A stretch of 25,063 nucleotides of DNA, counting the filler, from an uncultured virus (IMG/VR IMGVR_UViG_2061766007_000575) (Duplodnaviria > Heunggongvirae > Uroviricota > Caudoviricetes). It is 2 parts of one record of this genome, joined end to end, with 100 filler letters (N's around TTAATTAATTAA, not from the genome) between each part and the next. Parts side by side here need not be neighbours in the genome. Positions count along the whole stretch, not along the records: positions 10,760 to 25,063 come from IMGVR_UViG_2061766007_000575; 1 more part is not named here. The stretch is one strand, 5' to 3'. Each line of letters opens with the position of its first letter. Positions within the stretch are counted from its first letter, which is position 1. Under the pieces are notes generated by a model. It did not search any database and was not told the origin of the DNA. It saw only the letters and a program-made list of their open reading frames with translations. Positions 3,030 to 23,808 of this stretch are shown one piece after another. A program made the position numbers and the translations under genes.

Positions 3030-3773
3030 ATGATAGGGATATATAAAATTACCAATAAAAATAACGGCTTAATTTATATTGGGCAAAGCAAAAATATAGA
3101 AAGAAGAAAGACAGAACATTTTAATAATAATAAATACAATCTGTCTGAAATAGATAAAACCATTCAATTAATTGGTGCTGAAAATTTTTCTTTTGAAGTT
3201 TTAGAAGAATGTTTAGCCGAAGAATTAGATCAAAAAGAAGAATATTGGATTCAATATTATGATAGTTATAATAATGGATATAATAAAACGAAAGGCGGCC
3301 AAGGTCGTTTTAGTGGCGGCAGACCCATTTTAACTGAAGAAGATGTAATTAACATAAGAAAAGCTTATGCTAATCGAGAAGAAAGAGATAGGGTTTATTT
3401 ATTATACCAAAACAAAATTACTAAAAATGGTTTTTTACAAGTGTGGCAAGGCAATAGGTGGAAAAATATAATGCCAGAAGTTTATACAGAAGAAAATAAG
3501 GAATATCAAAAACAAAAAGGCAAATTTAAAAGTGGTGGGGAGCATTTTAAAGCAGCATTTTCAAACGAAGAAGTCCTTTTAATAAGAAAAAGATATGTAA
3601 ATGAAACTGCTAAACAGATTTGGGAAGACTATCAAGATCGTTGTACTCTTGGTTCTTTTAAACAGATACTAATAGGAGTAAAGTATAGTAATCTTCCTAT
3701 ATATAAAAAACAACAAAAACAATGGATTAATATAGGAGAATATGATGAATTTAAAACAAATAATCGAGGATAG
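3030..3773 (+). CDS. Free-standing GIY-YIG homing endonuclease
   Basis: MIGIYKITN...IYIGQS...RxxEH, E..YWI, GYNKTKGG; two repeated C-terminal DNA-binding-like units; lies between gyrB and gyrA. Confidence 0.9.
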   Translation: MIGIYKITNKNNGLIYIGQSKNIERRKTEHFNNNKYNLSEIDKTIQLIGAENFSFEVLEECLAEELDQKEEYWIQYYDSYNNGYNKTKGGQGRFSGGRPILTEEDVINIRKAYANREERDRVYLLYQNKITKNGFLQVWQGNRWKNIMPEVYTEENKEYQKQKGKFKSGGEHFKAAFSNEEVLLIRKRYVNETAKQIWEDYQDRCTLGSFKQILIGVKYSNLPIYKKQQKQWINIGEYDEFKTNNRG

Positions 3774-16931: not shown

Positions 16932-18649
16932 TGCAATATAAGCTAGTAAATGAAAACTTCAAGAGTGATTATGGGAAGAATCTACTGCGGGCGCGCGGTA
17001 TTACAAATATTAATGATTTTCTAAAACCAACTTCAATTTGTCTTCAAAGTCCAGAATTTTTGGACAATATTCTAAAAGGAACAGAAGTTTTAATAAAGAC
17101 TTTAAAAGAAAATAAACCAATTTTAATTATAGTTGATAGCGATGTTGATGGATATACATCAGCCGCGATCACATATCAATATATTATGACCGCTTTTAGT
17201 TACTTGAATCCAAATGTTCAATATAAGCTCCATAATGGTAAACAGCATGGATTAGAAGACCATATTGAAGAATTAATAAATGAAGATTGGGGATTAATTA
17301 TTTGTCCTGACTCTAGTTCTAATGATAAAGAATACCATGAAAAGCTGAATTGTCCGGTTCTAGTTTTAGACCACCATGAACTCGACCGCGATACGGCGCC
17401 AAACGCTATAATTATAAATAATCAGACTTCCCCTTATTATAATAACAAGGAACTGACTGGCGCTGGAGTCGCATATCAGTTCTGCCGCTATGTAGACTTT
17501 AGTTATACTCATGTCCATTATGCAAAAGACCTTATTGATCTCGCCGCTCTTGGTATTTGTGGCGATATGGGTTCAATGGCACAGATTGAAAATAGATATA
17601 TTTGTTATACTGGATTTAGAAATGTGAAAAATCCTTTCTTTAAAGCAATTCTTGAAAAGCAGTCCTATTCAACTGGTGGAAAGGTTAATCCAATGACAGT
17701 TGCCTTCTATGTTGTTCCAATGATTAATGCTATGATTAGAACAGGGACAATGGAGGAAAAGACAAGACTTTTTGAAGCTTTTATCCATGGAAATGAAATG
17801 ATTCCAAGCGGGAAGAGAGGCGCGAAAGGAACTTTAGAAAAAAGAGCTGTTGAAAGTGTAAGAGAATGTACAAATGCGCGCAGTCATCAAAATAAAATTC
17901 TGGATAAAAATGTTGAGAAGTTTGAGGATAGAATTTATAAATATGGGCTGTTAGATAATAGAATTTTGTTTGTAAGGTTGGAAGATGACGATGATCTACC
18001 TTCAGAATTAAATGGGTTACTTGCAATGAAGTTGGCGGCGAAGTATAAGAAGCCTACAATTGTGGCGCGGCTCAATCCTGAAGGATATGATAGAGGATCA
18101 ATTAGAAATGTAAGTAATTGCGCGCTAACTGATCTTAAAGCCTTTTTAAATGAAAGCGGATATTTTGAATATGTGCAAGGTCATGCTAATGCGGCCGGCT
18201 GCAGCATTTTAGACAAAGATTTAAGAGCTTTTCATGAATATGCTAATGACGCTCTTAGTACAATTGATTTTGGCGAAGGGGTCTATGATGTGAACTTCGT
18301 GAGGGCGGCCGCAGACTCAGATATTGAAGATATTATTTTTGATTTAGCTAATTATGAGGATACTTGGGGACAAGGCAATCCACAAGCTCTTATTTATGTG
18401 AGAGATTTAAACATTACAAAAGATGATTATCAGATTATGGGCAAGAATAAAGATACATTAAAGATTACAAAATTTGGTATTGCTTATATGAAGTTTTTTG
18501 CAAAAGATTTAATTCAGCAATTAGAACAAATGGATAAAATTAAGATAAATTTAGTTGGAAAGCCGAATTTAAATGAATATTGTGGCAATCTTATCCCGCA
18601 AATTTTTATTGAAGCTTATGAATTGGAGGACGATACCTTCGGTTTTTAA
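16931..18649 (+). CDS. recJ: RecJ-like ssDNA exonuclease (DHH/DHHA1)
   Basis: DSDVDG, HGL, LDHH, LTGAGV, RGSIR, GHANAAG. Confidence 0.92.
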   Translation: MQYKLVNENFKSDYGKNLLRARGITNINDFLKPTSICLQSPEFLDNILKGTEVLIKTLKENKPILIIVDSDVDGYTSAAITYQYIMTAFSYLNPNVQYKLHNGKQHGLEDHIEELINEDWGLIICPDSSSNDKEYHEKLNCPVLVLDHHELDRDTAPNAIIINNQTSPYYNNKELTGAGVAYQFCRYVDFSYTHVHYAKDLIDLAALGICGDMGSMAQIENRYICYTGFRNVKNPFFKAILEKQSYSTGGKVNPMTVAFYVVPMINAMIRTGTMEEKTRLFEAFIHGNEMIPSGKRGAKGTLEKRAVESVRECTNARSHQNKILDKNVEKFEDRIYKYGLLDNRILFVRLEDDDDLPSELNGLLAMKLAAKYKKPTIVARLNPEGYDRGSIRNVSNCALTDLKAFLNESGYFEYVQGHANAAGCSILDKDLRAFHEYANDALSTIDFGEGVYDVNFVRAAADSDIEDIIFDLANYEDTWGQGNPQALIYVRDLNITKDDYQIMGKNKDTLKITKFGIAYMKFFAKDLIQQLEQMDKIKINLVGKPNLNEYCGNLIPQIFIEAYELEDDTFGF

Positions 18650-18659
18650 GTTTGCTTAC

Positions 18660-18725
18660 ACAGCGGCCGAGTGTCCTTGCGCAATCAAGGAAGAACCAAA
18701 AAATCATTTGCCTCGGGCGCGCTGT
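18660..18725. other. GC-rich intergenic branched stem-loop of unknown function
   Basis: acagcg/cgctgt and ccgag/ctcgg outer stems; inner tccttg/caagga hairpin. Confidence 0.55.
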
Positions 18726-18731
18726 AGAAGT

Positions 18732-18760
18732 TTGACTTTTCCATAAAATTATGGTATAAT
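18732..18760 (+). promoter_or_regulatory. sigma70/sigmaA-like promoter
   Basis: TTGACT 18732-18737, 17-nt spacer, TGgTATAAT ending 18760. Confidence 0.85.
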
Positions 18761-18781
18761 TATTATATAAGGTAAGAAAAG

Positions 18782-18973
18782 ATGAGGTTAATTGAAGTAT
18801 TAAAAATCTTAGCTGCATATATTTGTGATTGGGACTGCCCGCTTAGTGCAGAACACGATGTAATAATTTTTAACACATATTATGATGATATCCCAAAAGA
18901 TGTATTAGAAACTTTAGATGAATTGGGTTGTTTTTATAGCAATGAATATGATAGTTCAATTATGTTTGTTTAA
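18782..18973 (+). CDS. Small acidic hypothetical protein
   Basis: 63 aa directly after the promoter; SD taaggt. Confidence 0.65.
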   Translation: MRLIEVLKILAAYICDWDCPLSAEHDVIIFNTYYDDIPKDVLETLDELGCFYSNEYDSSIMFV

Positions 18974-19030
18974 AGAAGTTAATAAAATTTGGAAGTTTAC
19001 ATAACTTTGTGGAGAGTTCCAAGATTTTAT

Positions 19031-19044
19031 CTACTTATATATAG
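19031..19044 (+). promoter_or_regulatory. Putative alternative (late?) promoter motif yTACTT-N5-TAG
   Basis: ctactt atata tag, then SD aaggtg and ATG 19056. Confidence 0.55.
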
Positions 19045-19055
19045 AAGGTGATGAA

Positions 19056-19796
19056 ATGATTGGAATTTATAAATACACCAATAAAGAAAATGGTAAAATT
19101 TATATTGGTCGCAGTTTAAATATAGCTAAACGCAAATGGGAACATTTAAAAAATCCATCTCCATATTCTTATTTTGATCAAACATTAGCAGCGATAGGTG
19201 AAGAGGCTTTTAATTTTGAAGTAATTGAAGAATGTACGGCCGAAAAATTAAAAGAAAGAGAAAAGTATTGGATTCAATATTATAATTGTTGTGTATTAGA
19301 TAATAGAAATGGTGGATATAACTTAACTCGTGGTGGTGAAGAATATAAGAGTGAAGAAAATCCGTGGGCACAATTAACTATTAAGCAAGTAGAAGAAATT
19401 ATTGATAAACTTGCTAATACAACTATTTCAATTCAACAATTAGCAAAAGAATATAAAGTACATCCCAATACAATTGGTAATATAAATAGATGTAAAACAT
19501 GGACTTGGTTACATAATTATCAAAGCAATATTAGAGAGAGCGTTCAAGGTAGTTTATATCATGGGGCCTTAAATGGTTGTGCAATAATAACCGAAGAAAT
19601 AGCAAAAAATATTATATATGATATTAAGTACAGTAATGAATCTCTGGCGGCTATTAGTCGAAAATATAAAATAAAAACTAGTTTAGTTTATGATATTAAT
19701 AGGTGCAGAACCTGGAAATATTTACATAATTTTAAGTATAATATTAGAAATGAGTTTAAGAAAGGTGGTGATGCTAATAATGAAGACTATAATTAA
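19056..19796 (+). CDS. Free-standing GIY-YIG homing endonuclease with two HTH-like repeats
   Basis: MIGIYKYTN...IYIGRS...RKWEH, EREKYWI, GYNLTRGG; duplicated INRC(K/R)TW.(W/Y)LHN..NIR units. Confidence 0.9.
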   Translation: MIGIYKYTNKENGKIYIGRSLNIAKRKWEHLKNPSPYSYFDQTLAAIGEEAFNFEVIEECTAEKLKEREKYWIQYYNCCVLDNRNGGYNLTRGGEEYKSEENPWAQLTIKQVEEIIDKLANTTISIQQLAKEYKVHPNTIGNINRCKTWTWLHNYQSNIRESVQGSLYHGALNGCAIITEEIAKNIIYDIKYSNESLAAISRKYKIKTSLVYDINRCRTWKYLHNFKYNIRNEFKKGGDANNEDYN

Positions 19797-22653
19797 AGAT
19801 TATCCCGGAAGTCTTCATAATTAGGGAACCATACAGATTATTCAAATATTAGATTAAGAGATTGTATAATTAAGACAGANNNNNNNNNNAGATTTAATTA
19901 AATATGCAAGTGAGCTTGGACATAAGGTTGTGGCGATAACTGATCATGAATGTCTTAGTAATCATGTTAAGGTTGAAAAAATAGCAAAAAAGTATCCAAA
20001 TATAAAAGTTATTCGTGGTAATGAGATTTATCTGTGCCGCAATAGTCTTAATGCAGATAATTATAATAGAGAAGTCGATCGTTATTATCACTTCATTCTT
20101 CTCGCAAAGGACGCAATTGGTCATCAGCAACTTAGAGAAATATCTACAAGAGCATGGCATCGTTCTTATATGGCGCGAGGTATGAGAAGAGTCCCAACAT
20201 ATTATCAAGATTTATTTGATATAATTGGTGAGAATCCTGGTCATGTGATTGGGTCAACAGCTTGTTTAGGTGGCGCGCTGCCGACGCAAATTTTAAGATA
20301 TATTGAACTTGCAAGAGGAACTGGACGAAACGATAAAGCATTAGAACTAGCAAATAAAATTGATATTTGGATTAAGCAAATGGATGAATTATTTGGTCAT
20401 GGAAATTTTTTCTTTGAACTTCAACCATCTGCATCTACAGAACAAACAATAGTTAATCAAGCATTATTGGAATACTCAGCAAAGTTTGATATTCCTTATA
20501 TTATAACAACAGATAGTCATTATCTTAAAAAGGAAGATGCACCGATTCACAAGGCGTTTCTTAACTCTCAAGATGGTGATCGTGAAGTAGATAGTTTTTA
20601 TGCGACTACTTATATGATGAGTACTGAAGAACTTGAATCTTACTTTAAAGGATATGAAAAAGAAGTATTAGAAACGGCTTATCAAAATATTTTAAAAATT
20701 AGCGAGATGTGTGAAGACTATTCACTTCTCAAATCTTTAAAAATACCTGAATTGACTTGGAAGAAGGCGCCGGCGCTCTCGACGTCTGATAAGGACAAAT
20801 GGTTTAAACTCATTCCTCAGTTATTTGAGTTCTATATGTCTGATTATGAAGGAGATAAACTTCTTTCTGAGCTTATAATTAATCGAATTAAGGATGATGA
20901 AACTCTTCAAAATGAAAAAACTTATAATGCAATAAATGAATGTCTTGAAATGACAAAAGTTTCATCTGAGGTCAATAAAACTCATTGGAGTGCATATTAT
21001 CTCAATCTCCAAAAAATTATTGATGTATGTTGGGAAGCAGGTAGTCTTGTTGGTCCTGGTCGTGGTTCTGGTGTCGGTTTTATTCTTCTTTATCTCTTGG
21101 GAATAACTCAAATTAATCCTCTGCGTGAAACAACTCCGACGTTTGCGTGGAGATTTTTGAATCCGGCGCGAGTCAGTGTGCTTGATGTTGACTTTGATAT
21201 TGAAGGTAGCCGGCGCGCAACTGTTTTGTCGAAGTTTAGAGAGGTTTATGGTGAAGATCGAGTATCAAATGTTGCAACTTTTGGTACTGAAAAGTCAAAG
21301 TCAGCAATATTGACGGCGGCGAGAGGTCTTGGGATTGATGTTGATACAGCTTCTTATATAGCGAGTTTGATCCCAGCTGATAGAGGATTAACTCGAACTC
21401 TTGATCAATGTATGTATGGTGATGAAGAGTCTGGTTTTGATCCGATTAAGCAGTTTGTAATAGAAATGACCGAAAATTATCCCGAACTTTGGGAAGTGGC
21501 GCATAAAATTGAAGGATTAGTTAATAGATTAGGACAGCATGCAGGTGGAGTTATATTTGTTGATGAGCCATTCACGAACTCAACCTCATTGATGCGGGCG
21601 CCGGATGATACAATCATCACAGCTTTCGACCTTCATGATTGTGAAGATGTTAGTTTGATTAAATATGATGCACTGTCGGTCGAAGCAATGGATAAGATTC
21701 ATATTTGTCTTGATTTATTGTGTGATGCAGGTTTTGTTGAGCGCAAATCAACTTTAAAAGAAACCTATGAAAGTGTTCTTGGTATTTATAATATAGAGCG
21801 CGATGATCCTAAAATGTGGGAAATGGTTTGGAACCATGAAATCTTCAGTCTATTCCAAATGGAAAAGCAAAGTGGTATCCAAGGTATCGCGCTCTCTAAG
21901 CCATCTTCGGTTGATGACTTAGCAACTCTTAACTCCGTTATTAGGCTAATGGCGCAAGAAAAGGGCGCTGAACAGCCTTTAAATAAATTTGCAAGATTTA
22001 AAGCAAACATTCAGAATTGGTATGATGAAATGAGTGCATATGGGTTAACATATGCAGAACAGAGGATTCTTGAACCACATCTTCTTCCATCAAATGGTAT
22101 TTGTGAATCACAGGAAGGTTTTATGCAGCTAGTTCAGATTCCTGAGTGCGGTGGTTTCGATCTGACTTGGGCGGATAGACTCCGTAAGTCAATTGCAAAA
22201 AAGAATCCAGCAGAATATGAACAACTAACAAAAGAATATTTTGAACGAGTTAAAGAAAAAGGGTTAAGTCCGAAACTTTGTAATTATGTTTGGAATGTAT
22301 TGGTTGCGACGAGTCGTGGTTATGGTTTTAATAAGTCACATACATTAGCTTATAGTTTGATAGCACTTCAAGAAATGAATTTGGCTTTCAAATATCCAAT
22401 AATCTTTTGGAATTGTGCTTGTTTGATAAGTGATAGTGGCGGCGCGGAAATCACAGAAGATGATGATGAAGAACCACAACTGAATTGTGAAGAAGAAAAA
22501 TATTATAATGAAATGGAAGAATTTGGGGAAGATGATTCCGAAGATGACATCGAAGATTCTTATGAAGAAGAAGATTGCGATGGATATCCAGCAGAAGTTG
22601 TAGTTCTCAAAAATGGTAAAAAGAAAAAGAAAGTCAAAACAACAAACTATGGT
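19780..22653 (+). CDS. dnaE: DNA polymerase III alpha (DnaE-type), exon 1; true start 19780, with an 8-nt frame-breaking insertion at 19819-19826
   Basis: SD aaggtggtg; MKTIIKDYPGSLH|NHTDYSN...AITDHE PHP motifs; GPGRGSG; catalytic DVDFD; HAGG; KYDALS; YGFNKSH. Confidence 0.92.
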
Positions 22654-22683
22654 AAAATTTTATAGAGTTTATATTAATAAATT

Positions 22684-22697
22684 TTACTTATAAGTAG
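22684..22697 (+). promoter_or_regulatory. Putative alternative (late?) promoter motif for the intron ORF
   Basis: ttactt ataag tag upstream of SD ggag and ATG 22727. Confidence 0.5.
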
Positions 22698-22726
22698 AAG
22701 ATAACAACAGACTACGGAGAAGTAAA

Positions 22727-23467
22727 ATGAAATATTCAGAAGAAACGATTCAAAAAATAATAGAGTTGCGTGAAAGTGGCAAAGGCGTAACTGAAATAGG
22801 AAGATTATTAAATCTTGACCGCGCGGCGGTATCAAGAAATCTTAAACAAAGAGGATATGATACTAGCCGTAATCCACTTATTAAAGACATTTTTCATGTT
22901 ATAGATACAGAAGAAAAAGCTTACTGGTTAGGTTTTCTATACGCGGATGGATATGTCTCAAAATATAATCAAATTGAAGTAAGTTTGTCTTTAAAAGATG
23001 AAGAACATTTGTATAAATTAAAAAAATTTATAAATACAAACACAAATATTATTAAAGATGACCACCGTTGTAGATTATTGTTCTGTAGTAAAGAAATGGC
23101 GGCAGACTTAGCAAAACTAGGGTGTATAAATAATAAAAGTTTAACTTTAACATTTCCTTCTGAAGAACAAATTCCTCAACATTTGTTAAGACATTTTTTA
23201 AGAGGTTATGTAGATGGAGATGGTTGTTTGTGCCATACAGATAAAACTCAACAGTTTAGCATTACCTCAACTCAAAAATTTTTTGATGGTATGTTACAAA
23301 GAACGGGATGGAGTCAAGATAAAAGTAACTATTATCCTAGCGGTCAAGCAATAACTTGGCGCTGTCATAAAGATGTAATGCCACAGTATTTAAAATATCT
23401 TTATGATAATAGTAATATATATTTGAATCGTAAATATGAAAAATATAAAACTCTCACTGCCGTTTAA
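22727..23467 (+). CDS. Intron-encoded LAGLIDADG homing endonuclease with N-terminal HTH
   Basis: EEKAYWLGFLYADG and HFLRGYVDGDG motifs; LNRKYEK C-terminus. Confidence 0.9.
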   Translation: MKYSEETIQKIIELRESGKGVTEIGRLLNLDRAAVSRNLKQRGYDTSRNPLIKDIFHVIDTEEKAYWLGFLYADGYVSKYNQIEVSLSLKDEEHLYKLKKFINTNTNIIKDDHRCRLLFCSKEMAADLAKLGCINNKSLTLTFPSEEQIPQHLLRHFLRGYVDGDGCLCHTDKTQQFSITSTQKFFDGMLQRTGWSQDKSNYYPSGQAITWRCHKDVMPQYLKYLYDNSNIYLNRKYEKYKTLTAV

Positions 23468-23689
23468 GTGAGAAATCATTTAAATAATGAGCGCGGAAAA
23501 AATCTGGAAGACTGAGATGTTAATCAGAGGTGAAGGCTTATGCCAGCCGCAACGCATAGGAAATGAAATAATTTTCCCACGAGGCCGCGCCACCCAAACG
23601 TAAAGTCGTGGGTGAAAAGATATGCTGAGCTTATGCGAATAAGAAGCATAAGAACTAAAGGATAAAAAGCCTTTAGGGTAACATAACTG

Positions 23690-23808
23690 AAAATAGCAAC
23701 AGCAATAGGTAAAATGAGGATGGCCGGCATTGAAGTTGCGCCGCCGGATATAAATGTTTCAACTTATACTTTCTCACCGGATGTTGAACATAACACAATT
23801 CGTTATGG
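23690..23808 (+). CDS. dnaE: dnaE exon 2, first part (variant duplicate at 24423-24512)
   Basis: KIATAIGKMRMAGIEVAPPDINVSTYTFSPDVEHNTIRYG, containing the PPDIN motif. Confidence 0.88.

Follow-up and report, generated by a model that had tools for sequence, protein, structure and literature searches.

Programmed translational bypass, in which ribosomes hop from a take-off codon to a landing triplet, is known from very few natural cases. For T4 gene 60 and its nuclease MobA, published accounts describe a stop codon right after the take-off codon and a matched landing triplet (10.1101/2022.08.31.505936; 10.1101/2024.12.09.627546; PMC11194080). The insert is linked to a free-standing nuclease, lies in a conserved metal-binding motif and persists after nuclease loss, and refolding of a stem-loop as the mRNA exits the ribosome has been proposed to drive the movement. 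The gap was also reported to block self-nicking of the MobA element and to outlast the nuclease (10.1101/2022.08.31.505936). We analyzed a 25,063-nucleotide (nt) stretch from an uncultured virus of the Caudoviricetes (IMG/VR IMGVR_UViG_2061766007_000575), hereafter the window, in which a predicted hairpin spans the start of dnaE and an 8-nt coding gap shortly after it. Sequence comparison suggests that this hairpin belongs, as a conserved component, to a mobile nuclease cassette that takes the place of the phage dnaE 5′ end. The hairpin likely helps a stop-stalled ribosome to hop 8 bases, leaving AAT and landing on AAC, and would at the same time limit initiation.

The gene 60/MobA features named above are shared by the dnaE element or, for the refolding and the block to nicking, belong to our proposed reading of it. 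However, the gene 60 gap is about 50 nt long and lies in a topoisomerase gene, and MobA is an HNH nuclease, whereas the gaps reported here measure 4–12 nt (8 nt in the window), lie in dnaE and are associated with GIY-YIG or HNH nucleases. The open reading frame (ORF) preceding the gap, ORF1, has 46 codons in gene 60 and about 10–18 here. Gene 60 bypass also involves a nascent-peptide stimulator and a mini-SD 6 nt ahead of the landing site. The gene 60 take-off stem-loop carries the take-off codon on its 5′ side, whereas that of the window lies on the 3′ arm. Also unlike gene 60, the 5′ arm of the dnaE element consists of the Shine-Dalgarno (SD) sequence and the start codon, and four take-off codons and two nuclease families are involved. 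The dnaE element would work like gene 60 bypass but does not have its defining gap length, host gene or take-off stem-loop.

Other described systems share parts of this arrangement. The terminase bypass of Streptomyces phage Hau3 has 7–10-nt gaps in an essential phage gene with a 5′ stem-loop as the proposed stimulator, and bypass was preferred over frameshifting since the junction residues are conserved (PMC10732093). It differs in its A-site codon, the rare sense codon UUA, in the proposed host sensing and in its internal position, and the available part of that report mentions no link to a nuclease (PMC10732093). Synthetic stop-hops (PMC5009743) and the byps of Magnusiomyces mitochondria (10.1101/2022.08.31.505936) likewise have matched codons around a slow A-site codon, in any frame; the former are low-level and unstimulated events in constructs (PMC5009743), and the latter are 27–55 nt long and follow an unassigned sense codon (10.1101/2022.08.31.505936). 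According to a 2016 review, shorter counterparts of gene 60 had long been presumed, and no natural in-frame stop hop was known (PMC5009743); the 6- and 12-nt gaps found here would be such hops. The +1 frameshift of the release factor 2 (RF2) gene prfB at CUU UGA C (PMC5009743) has the same type of site as six relatives carrying an HNH cassette, though not the window. No published report of such gaps in dnaE was found in a search that largely left subscription papers and preprint supplements outside its reach.

In the window, the dnaE frame from the ATG at 19780 (ORF1; 19780..19824, + strand, as are all features below) yields MKTIIKDYPGSLHN, 14 sense codons, and ends at TAG (19822–19824). The remainder of the motif (HTDYSNIRLRD) begins at 19830 in a different frame, where the resume codon CAT opens ORF2, exon 1 (19830..22653), with PHP, Pol III alpha NTPase and finger domains. 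Since intact relatives are continuous through the motif (GSLHNHTDYSN), the window has 8 extra bases (19822..19829) inside the PHP HxH motif, between the Asn and the second His. The layout is AAT / TAG GG AAC / CAT, comprising the putative take-off codon AAT (19819..19821), which is the final sense codon of the short ORF1, the stop TAG, the purines GG directly adjoining the landing triplet, and the putative landing triplet AAC itself (19827–19829). A slow A-site codon directly after the take-off codon, as is required for programmed bypass, is thus present as TAG 19822–19824. The motif aligns with LHQHT of Taq Pol III alpha. We take the two His of the interrupted HxH motif to be among the metal-binding PHP residues. 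The PHP site is described as binding three metals via nine residues, five of which are His (PMC5636811).

An assembly artefact as the origin of the gap was ruled out by independent contigs and by close relatives. The 8 extra bases were found, without an indel, in contigs of three studies besides the probable source (X5 record 3, with 0 differences over 19571–19879; X6 record 5; X7 record 10), and variants in contigs of other studies fall only in the inner stem and the bulge of the hairpin. The close relatives L001, L081 and L084 do not have the gap. The N run at 19880–19889 is a scaffold joint 3′ of the element, which the close relative L083 reads through in frame; ten-base N joints occur at many positions of the window, several with duplicated flanks, and represent scaffold artefacts. 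Readthrough of TAG, or its recoding to Gln, was also rejected for the window, as the frame beyond TAG stops within 12 codons and is not DnaE; the standard genetic code of the close relative G005 also counts against recoding.

The hairpin holds up as a predicted structure. Every pairing listed in the original prediction is present in the sequence, and all of its coordinates are correct. The core 5′ arm ATGAAGACT (19780..19788; the start codon and codons 2–3) is the exact reverse complement of the core 3′ arm AGTCTTCAT (19810..19818), which encodes the Ser-Leu-His immediately before the take-off codon. Beyond an A19779–A19819 mismatch, the spacer arm CTAAT (19774..19778) pairs with ATTAG (19820–19824), that is, with the take-off codon and the stop. 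The predicted inner stem, ATAAT (19789–19793) with ATTAT (19799–19803), exists (inner stem-loop, 19789..19803) but is not conserved, with at least 4 pairs in 14 of 36 loci of the Asn class defined below; a T19800A variant seen in two other studies breaks it. The hairpin is longer than had been noted, since GTGGT (19765–19769), part of the extended SD (19760..19773), forms the outermost 5′ arm and pairs with ACCAT (19828–19832) at a probability of 0.96–1.0, an additional outer helix that joins the ribosome-binding site to the landing and resume bases. Folding of 19760–19860 gave −21.6 kcal/mol (z −2.82; 3 of 200 shuffles as good), and in a 179-nt context the pair probabilities were 0.94–1.0 for the core and outer helices and 0.83–0.85 for the inner helix. 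Two details required correction. The helix covers the start codon as had been claimed, but AUG is paired with the His codon CAU (19816–19818) and not with the take-off codon, which together with the stop pairs with the spacer between the SD and AUG. Likewise, only the TAG of ATTAG, which had been regarded as inserted bases, starts the gap; its AT is the end of the take-off codon.

To place the gap among homologs, four protein scans and one pattern scan were combined, yielding 332 loci. With the window, 327 of 333 were anchored by a procedure that looked solely for stop-led gaps, giving 218 distinct 5′ regions, and after 45 distant or low-scoring regions were dropped, 173 distinct loci were kept (60 gap-bearing and 113 intact). 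Rows on distant intact genes with a take-off index of 3 or a low motif score were discarded as search artefacts. The 60 gap loci include 16 found solely by the pattern scan, whose design selects for the 3′ arm and the stop; by the protein scans alone, 44 of 157 distinct loci were gap-bearing. The gaps follow four take-off codons, His1 (12 loci), Asn (36), His2 (4) and Ser (8). Their lengths of 4–12 nt represent all three frames, so no single frameshift or readthrough accounts for them. The stop is TAG in 48 loci, TAA in 7 and TGA in 5, and where gaps were located by motif spacing alone a stop in the ORF1 frame still came first (24/24 loci; 26/26 distinct regions).

The triplet before the resume codon matches the take-off tRNA. 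With take-off anticodons assumed, and a TCT landing after a TCT take-off scored as full by identity, this triplet pairs with the take-off anticodon at three of three positions in 51 of the 60 loci and at two in the other 9. Counted by distinct gaps, 27 of 32 landing triplets pair at three positions and the other 5 at two, compared with 8–14% of background triplets pairing at all three. The landing triplet varies like a tRNA partner and not like a residue: AAC, AAT and AGC occur in the Asn class, TCA and TCT in the Ser class, and CAT, CAA and TAT in the His classes. CAA, TAT, GAT and AAT occur at His positions that are invariant in the 113 intact loci, which makes it unlikely that landing triplets are decoded. 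The codons on either side of the gap vary synonymously with the motif retained, and the gap-bearing records tested have a single dnaE each. ORF2 is open for at least 200 codons in 52 of 57 gap loci; the remaining 5 first stop at TAG, and the two of these with tested genomes read TAG as sense. Among the 113 intact alleles, the residue between the two His is Asn in 86, Gly in 10, Asp in 7, Thr in 6 and others in 4; alleles with a changed residue (L017, L040, L042, L043 and others) could be resistant to the nuclease.

The hairpin accompanies the gap across these loci. As the original prediction required, homologs with a gap retain the pairing, with compensatory changes, whereas intact loci almost entirely lack it. 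The median fold z was −1.33 in 19 distinct gap loci and +0.11 in 46 intact loci (p = 1.4e-5), and the duplex of start arm and take-off arm had a median of −13.4 kcal/mol in gap loci versus −7.4 in intact loci, taken as the best of four registers. In the Asn class, all eight core pairs are present in 31 of 36 loci and seven in the other 5, three of the eight (AUG with CAU) being nearly automatic, whereas eight pairs occur in 1 and seven in 2 of the 113 intact loci. In ten loci, the start was moved by hand to a neighboring in-frame ATG. Within the Asn class the core hardly varies, a single double change being seen (L009). Two loci have unusual starts, apparently ACG in L072 (2385–2453) and TTG in L032 (1038–1100), and keep the core helix.

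The hairpin register moves with the take-off codon in all four classes. The gap of the Ser class lies five codons further downstream, and in this class codons 2–4 are altered to complement the codons before Ser; 60 of 64 fixed-register pairs hold across the 8 loci (one set three bases off register by hand), with double changes at four to five positions, and only 8 of 40,320 arm permutations match the observed pairing. Because a MAFFT alignment of the same 8 loci misplaced the 5′ arms, RNAalifold recovered a weak consensus from it (−1.56 kcal/mol; double changes in 4 of 11 pairs), and the fixed-register count was used instead. The spacer arm tracks the stop and the gap, its own pairing being beaten in 6 of 10,000 permutations of the 36 Asn-class loci, and the SD pairs with the landing and resume bases in 35 of these 36. 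The comparison thus describes a 5′ arm complementary to the codons just before and at the take-off site, whichever they are.

The gap is also linked to a nuclease. When loci with 900 nt or more of upstream flank were surveyed, the GIY-YIG family of the window (family A) was found at 16 His1- or Asn-gap loci, a distant GIY-YIG at one His2-gap locus and an HNH nuclease at six Ser-gap loci, while 33 gap loci had no such nuclease. The gap position therefore follows the nuclease family, GIY-YIG with His/Asn and HNH with Ser. None of the 106 intact loci carried a gap-linked family, and two carried another GIY-YIG family. A FastTree tree was built from 162 downstream DnaE segments, with 11 rows left out for being short; on it, the presence of the gap switches 33 times or more, and none of 12 independent tree pairs runs against the nuclease–gap link (median p = 0.004). 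Searched from the nuclease side, the four full-length GIY-YIG matches, on contigs already in the set, all precede a gap-bearing dnaE. Of the best 15 HNH loci, 14 were inspected, and all 14 precede a dnaE with a broken 5′ frame: eight are Ser-class gaps, and in six (L443–L446, L448 and L449; about 1860–1925 in L443) one extra base creates CTT TGA C/T directly ahead of the conserved Asp, with the gene running on in +1. In 21 of the 22 closest pairs, identity to the nearest intact gene rises from the segment before the gap to the one behind it (57% to 94% in the window), and this jump at the gap indicates that the cassette replaces the 5′ end of dnaE. By these sequence comparisons, the cassette consists of a GIY-YIG nuclease gene, a new dnaE 5′ end (SD, start and first codons) and, within the PHP HxH motif, a gap that opens with a stop codon. 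Among cultured phages, none was found with a close dnaE or either nuclease, the best identities over most of the query being 46%, 34% and 33%.

Our reading of how this element acts may be set out as follows. The gap would protect the nuclease target site, as the gene 60 gap does for MobA. A 30S subunit would enter at the unpaired 5′ half of the long SD and open the stem; initiation would be infrequent, so that usually one ribosome would occupy the 14-codon ORF1. Once the P site holds Asn-tRNA and UAG occupies the A site, the 5′ arm, by then free, would re-pair with the mRNA exiting the ribosome, loosening the codon–anticodon pair and barring backward movement. The tRNA would then re-pair at AAC and decoding would restart at CAU, giving ...SLH-N-HTD... 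with the motif intact, while terminating ribosomes would release a 14-residue peptide. The 5′ stem-loop of gene 60 is described as ending 9 nt before the take-off codon, with pairing of the exiting mRNA as the proposed driver (10.1101/2024.12.09.627546), and trailing ribosomes are said to weaken refolding-driven bypass (PMC11194080). A hairpin over the start codon would, in our best reading, exclude a trailing ribosome and re-zip behind the leader.

Initiation gating, which the original prediction had also proposed, received computed support. The cost of opening the initiation region is 17.8 kcal/mol in the window, with medians of 13.5 for the 60 gap loci and 7.8 for the 113 intact loci. Gap loci also have a longer SD than intact loci, SD energies being scored against an anti-SD motif, and GGTGATG lies no more than 22 nt from the start in 40 of the 60 gap loci versus 2 of 113 intact. 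The further proposal that ribosomes finishing the nuclease ORF open the helix is not needed: 33 of the 56 gap loci with enough flank lack the nuclease, 30 of these 33 have no ORF ending near the dnaE start, and hairpin strength does not differ with or without the nuclease (p = 0.43), so coupling to the nuclease ORF is unnecessary.

As for the refolding-driven hop of the original prediction, the comparison gives good support to a move from AAT to AAC, whereas the push depends on how close to the ribosome pairing can reach. The folding energy gained as a ribosome goes from take-off to landing was computed with exclusions of 0, 3, 6, 9 and 12 nt. This zipper gain exceeds that of intact controls when pairing reaches within 0, 3 or 6 nt of the P-site codon. 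Several observations weigh against the hop and push as we read them, beginning with a gain that is no larger than in intact genes at 9 nt (p = 0.13–0.16) or 12 nt (p = 0.76–0.87). One core helix serves gaps of 4–11 nt, so the hop distance is not set by the helix, and the outer helices are impossible under a ribosome at the gap and therefore suit gating better than pushing. There is no common A-site hairpin (19 of 60 loci reach −3 kcal/mol; local fold median −1.25), and ORF1 has only about 10–18 codons. Other fully pairing triplets lie near the landing site in many loci, so landing may be imprecise, and the matched triplet can also arise by the cassette duplicating the recipient's codon. Three of the six CTT-TGA loci were folded and showed no significant hairpin (z +1.1 to −1.0). 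The loci are related, so the p values overstate independence and are upper bounds on the evidence. Finally, two phages that read TAG as sense, G009 and G011, keep TAG at the gap, one of them with a sense TAG in the same gene.

These two belong to nine gap-bearing records whose genetic code was tested. Six (G006, G007, G008, G009, G011 and G012) read TAG as sense, with a coding density of 0.42–0.59 under code 11 versus 0.78–0.89 under code 15, and five of the six encode a CTA-anticodon tRNA; the other three use the standard code. The gap stop is TAA or TGA in four of the recoded records and TAG in two, and TAG in two of the standard-code records and TGA in one, a pattern that is suggestive only, as records were picked partly by their stop codon.

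The strongest rival keeps the hop and removes the push: a slow stop codon and a matched triplet would alone drive the hop, and the hairpin would act at initiation only, as a gate that keeps ribosomes apart or limits how much DnaE is made. The opening energies, the pairing of the SD with landing and resume bases in the Asn class and the lack of zipper excess at 9–12-nt exclusions all favor it. Yet a pure gate need not follow the take-off codon, whereas the register shifts with it in all four classes, and intact genes in the same promoter context manage without a hairpin. We regard this explanation as unlikely, though it is the one that fares best after the assisted hop.

Considerably less probable is a −1 or +1 shift of the ribosome at the stop, or readthrough where the gap is in frame, with one to four residues added. 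Every out-of-frame gap is open in the shifted frame, a +1 shift at the 4-nt gaps adds a single residue, and the six CTT TGA loci resemble true +1 shifts. However, sister alleles would need −1, +1 and readthrough, the one to four residues would be added in or beside an HxH that is unbroken in 113 of 113 intact loci with both His invariant, and the matched triplet is left unexplained.

A protein enzyme that recognizes the long helix could instead cut the gap from the RNA as a micro-intron. The insert can be drawn as AATTAGGG, preceded by a U and with G as its last base, and the helix brackets it. Against this, 4–12 nt is too short for a ribozyme, the gap is partly paired without a common bulge geometry, and splicing needs neither an in-frame stop first, nor a tRNA-matched last triplet, nor a switch to TAA/TGA in recoded genomes; we consider it very improbable. 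Just as improbable is a split or dead dnaE, with ORF2 restarting downstream or the phage using the host polymerase. In its favor, an ATG, GTG or TTG lies within five codons after landing in 5 of 60 loci. Against it, 16 of 60 have no such start in 60 codons (the first in the window being GTG 19930, past HxH and RLRD), and synonymous variation on both gap sides with the motif kept, open ORF2s, single dnaE copies and gaps recurring on many branches (33 changes, 162-tip tree) speak against it.

The surroundings of the element in the window form a phage replication region with gyrase genes, a primase, a RecJ-like gene and dnaE. The free-standing GIY-YIG endonuclease ORF (19056..19796; 246 aa; PF01541, E value 3e-8) overlaps the dnaE start at 19780. 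A hairpin is predicted over the SD and ATG of this nuclease gene (19014..19068; −20.2 kcal/mol for the 100-nt region 18976–19075), and similar hairpins have been described upstream of free-standing phage nucleases (PMC2677866). Upstream of the cassette, a sigma-70-type promoter-like site (18732..18760) has 11 of 12 consensus matches and a TG extension; such matches are not less frequent than in shuffles, and the site is a lead only. A 63-aa ORF (18782–18973) lies between this site and the nuclease gene, and a second free-standing GIY-YIG ORF (3030–3773) separates the genes for the two gyrase subunits, overlapping the start of gyrA.

Separate from the hop element, a second interruption of dnaE (22654..23689), likely a group I intron, contains a LAGLIDADG ORF (22727–23467; PF14528). 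Its upstream exon ends in T, the insert ends in G, and the frame resumes as NYG / KIATAIGK. An Rfam scan over 18600–23800 matched neither this interruption nor the 8-nt insert. Homologs of dnaE are often interrupted further downstream at recurring positions (about codons 213, 404–439, 591 and 815 after the RLRD Asp), likely by introns (L011, L032, L052, L065, L071, L087 and others). The sequencing runs containing the stretch are mostly bovine gut metagenomes; two among them of doubtful RNA label are probably DNA, and two raw-read runs that were checked had no reads on the stretch.

More broadly, and tentatively, the element might represent a general minimal recoding device in gut phages, by which a mobile nuclease gives an essential gene a new 5′ end. 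Its SD/start-codon hairpin would admit one ribosome at a time, re-zip and force an efficient 4–12-nt hop without a nascent-peptide signal, retuned for each nuclease target (four take-off codons, three frames and an RF2-type +1 form) and the 6- and 12-nt gaps would be the first in-frame stop-hops seen in nature. Where phages have recoded TAG, a further role as a sensor of release factor or suppressor tRNA for the polymerase is conceivable. With 32 distinct natural gaps, matched triplets and a covarying hairpin in fewer than 90 bases, the question whether bypass is driven by re-pairing of mRNA behind the ribosome becomes testable with natural variants. The element would add a further route by which homing nucleases protect a conserved target, and about a quarter of the dnaE genes of this phage family (44 of the 157 distinct loci from the protein scans) probably lack their first PHP motif in current annotations.

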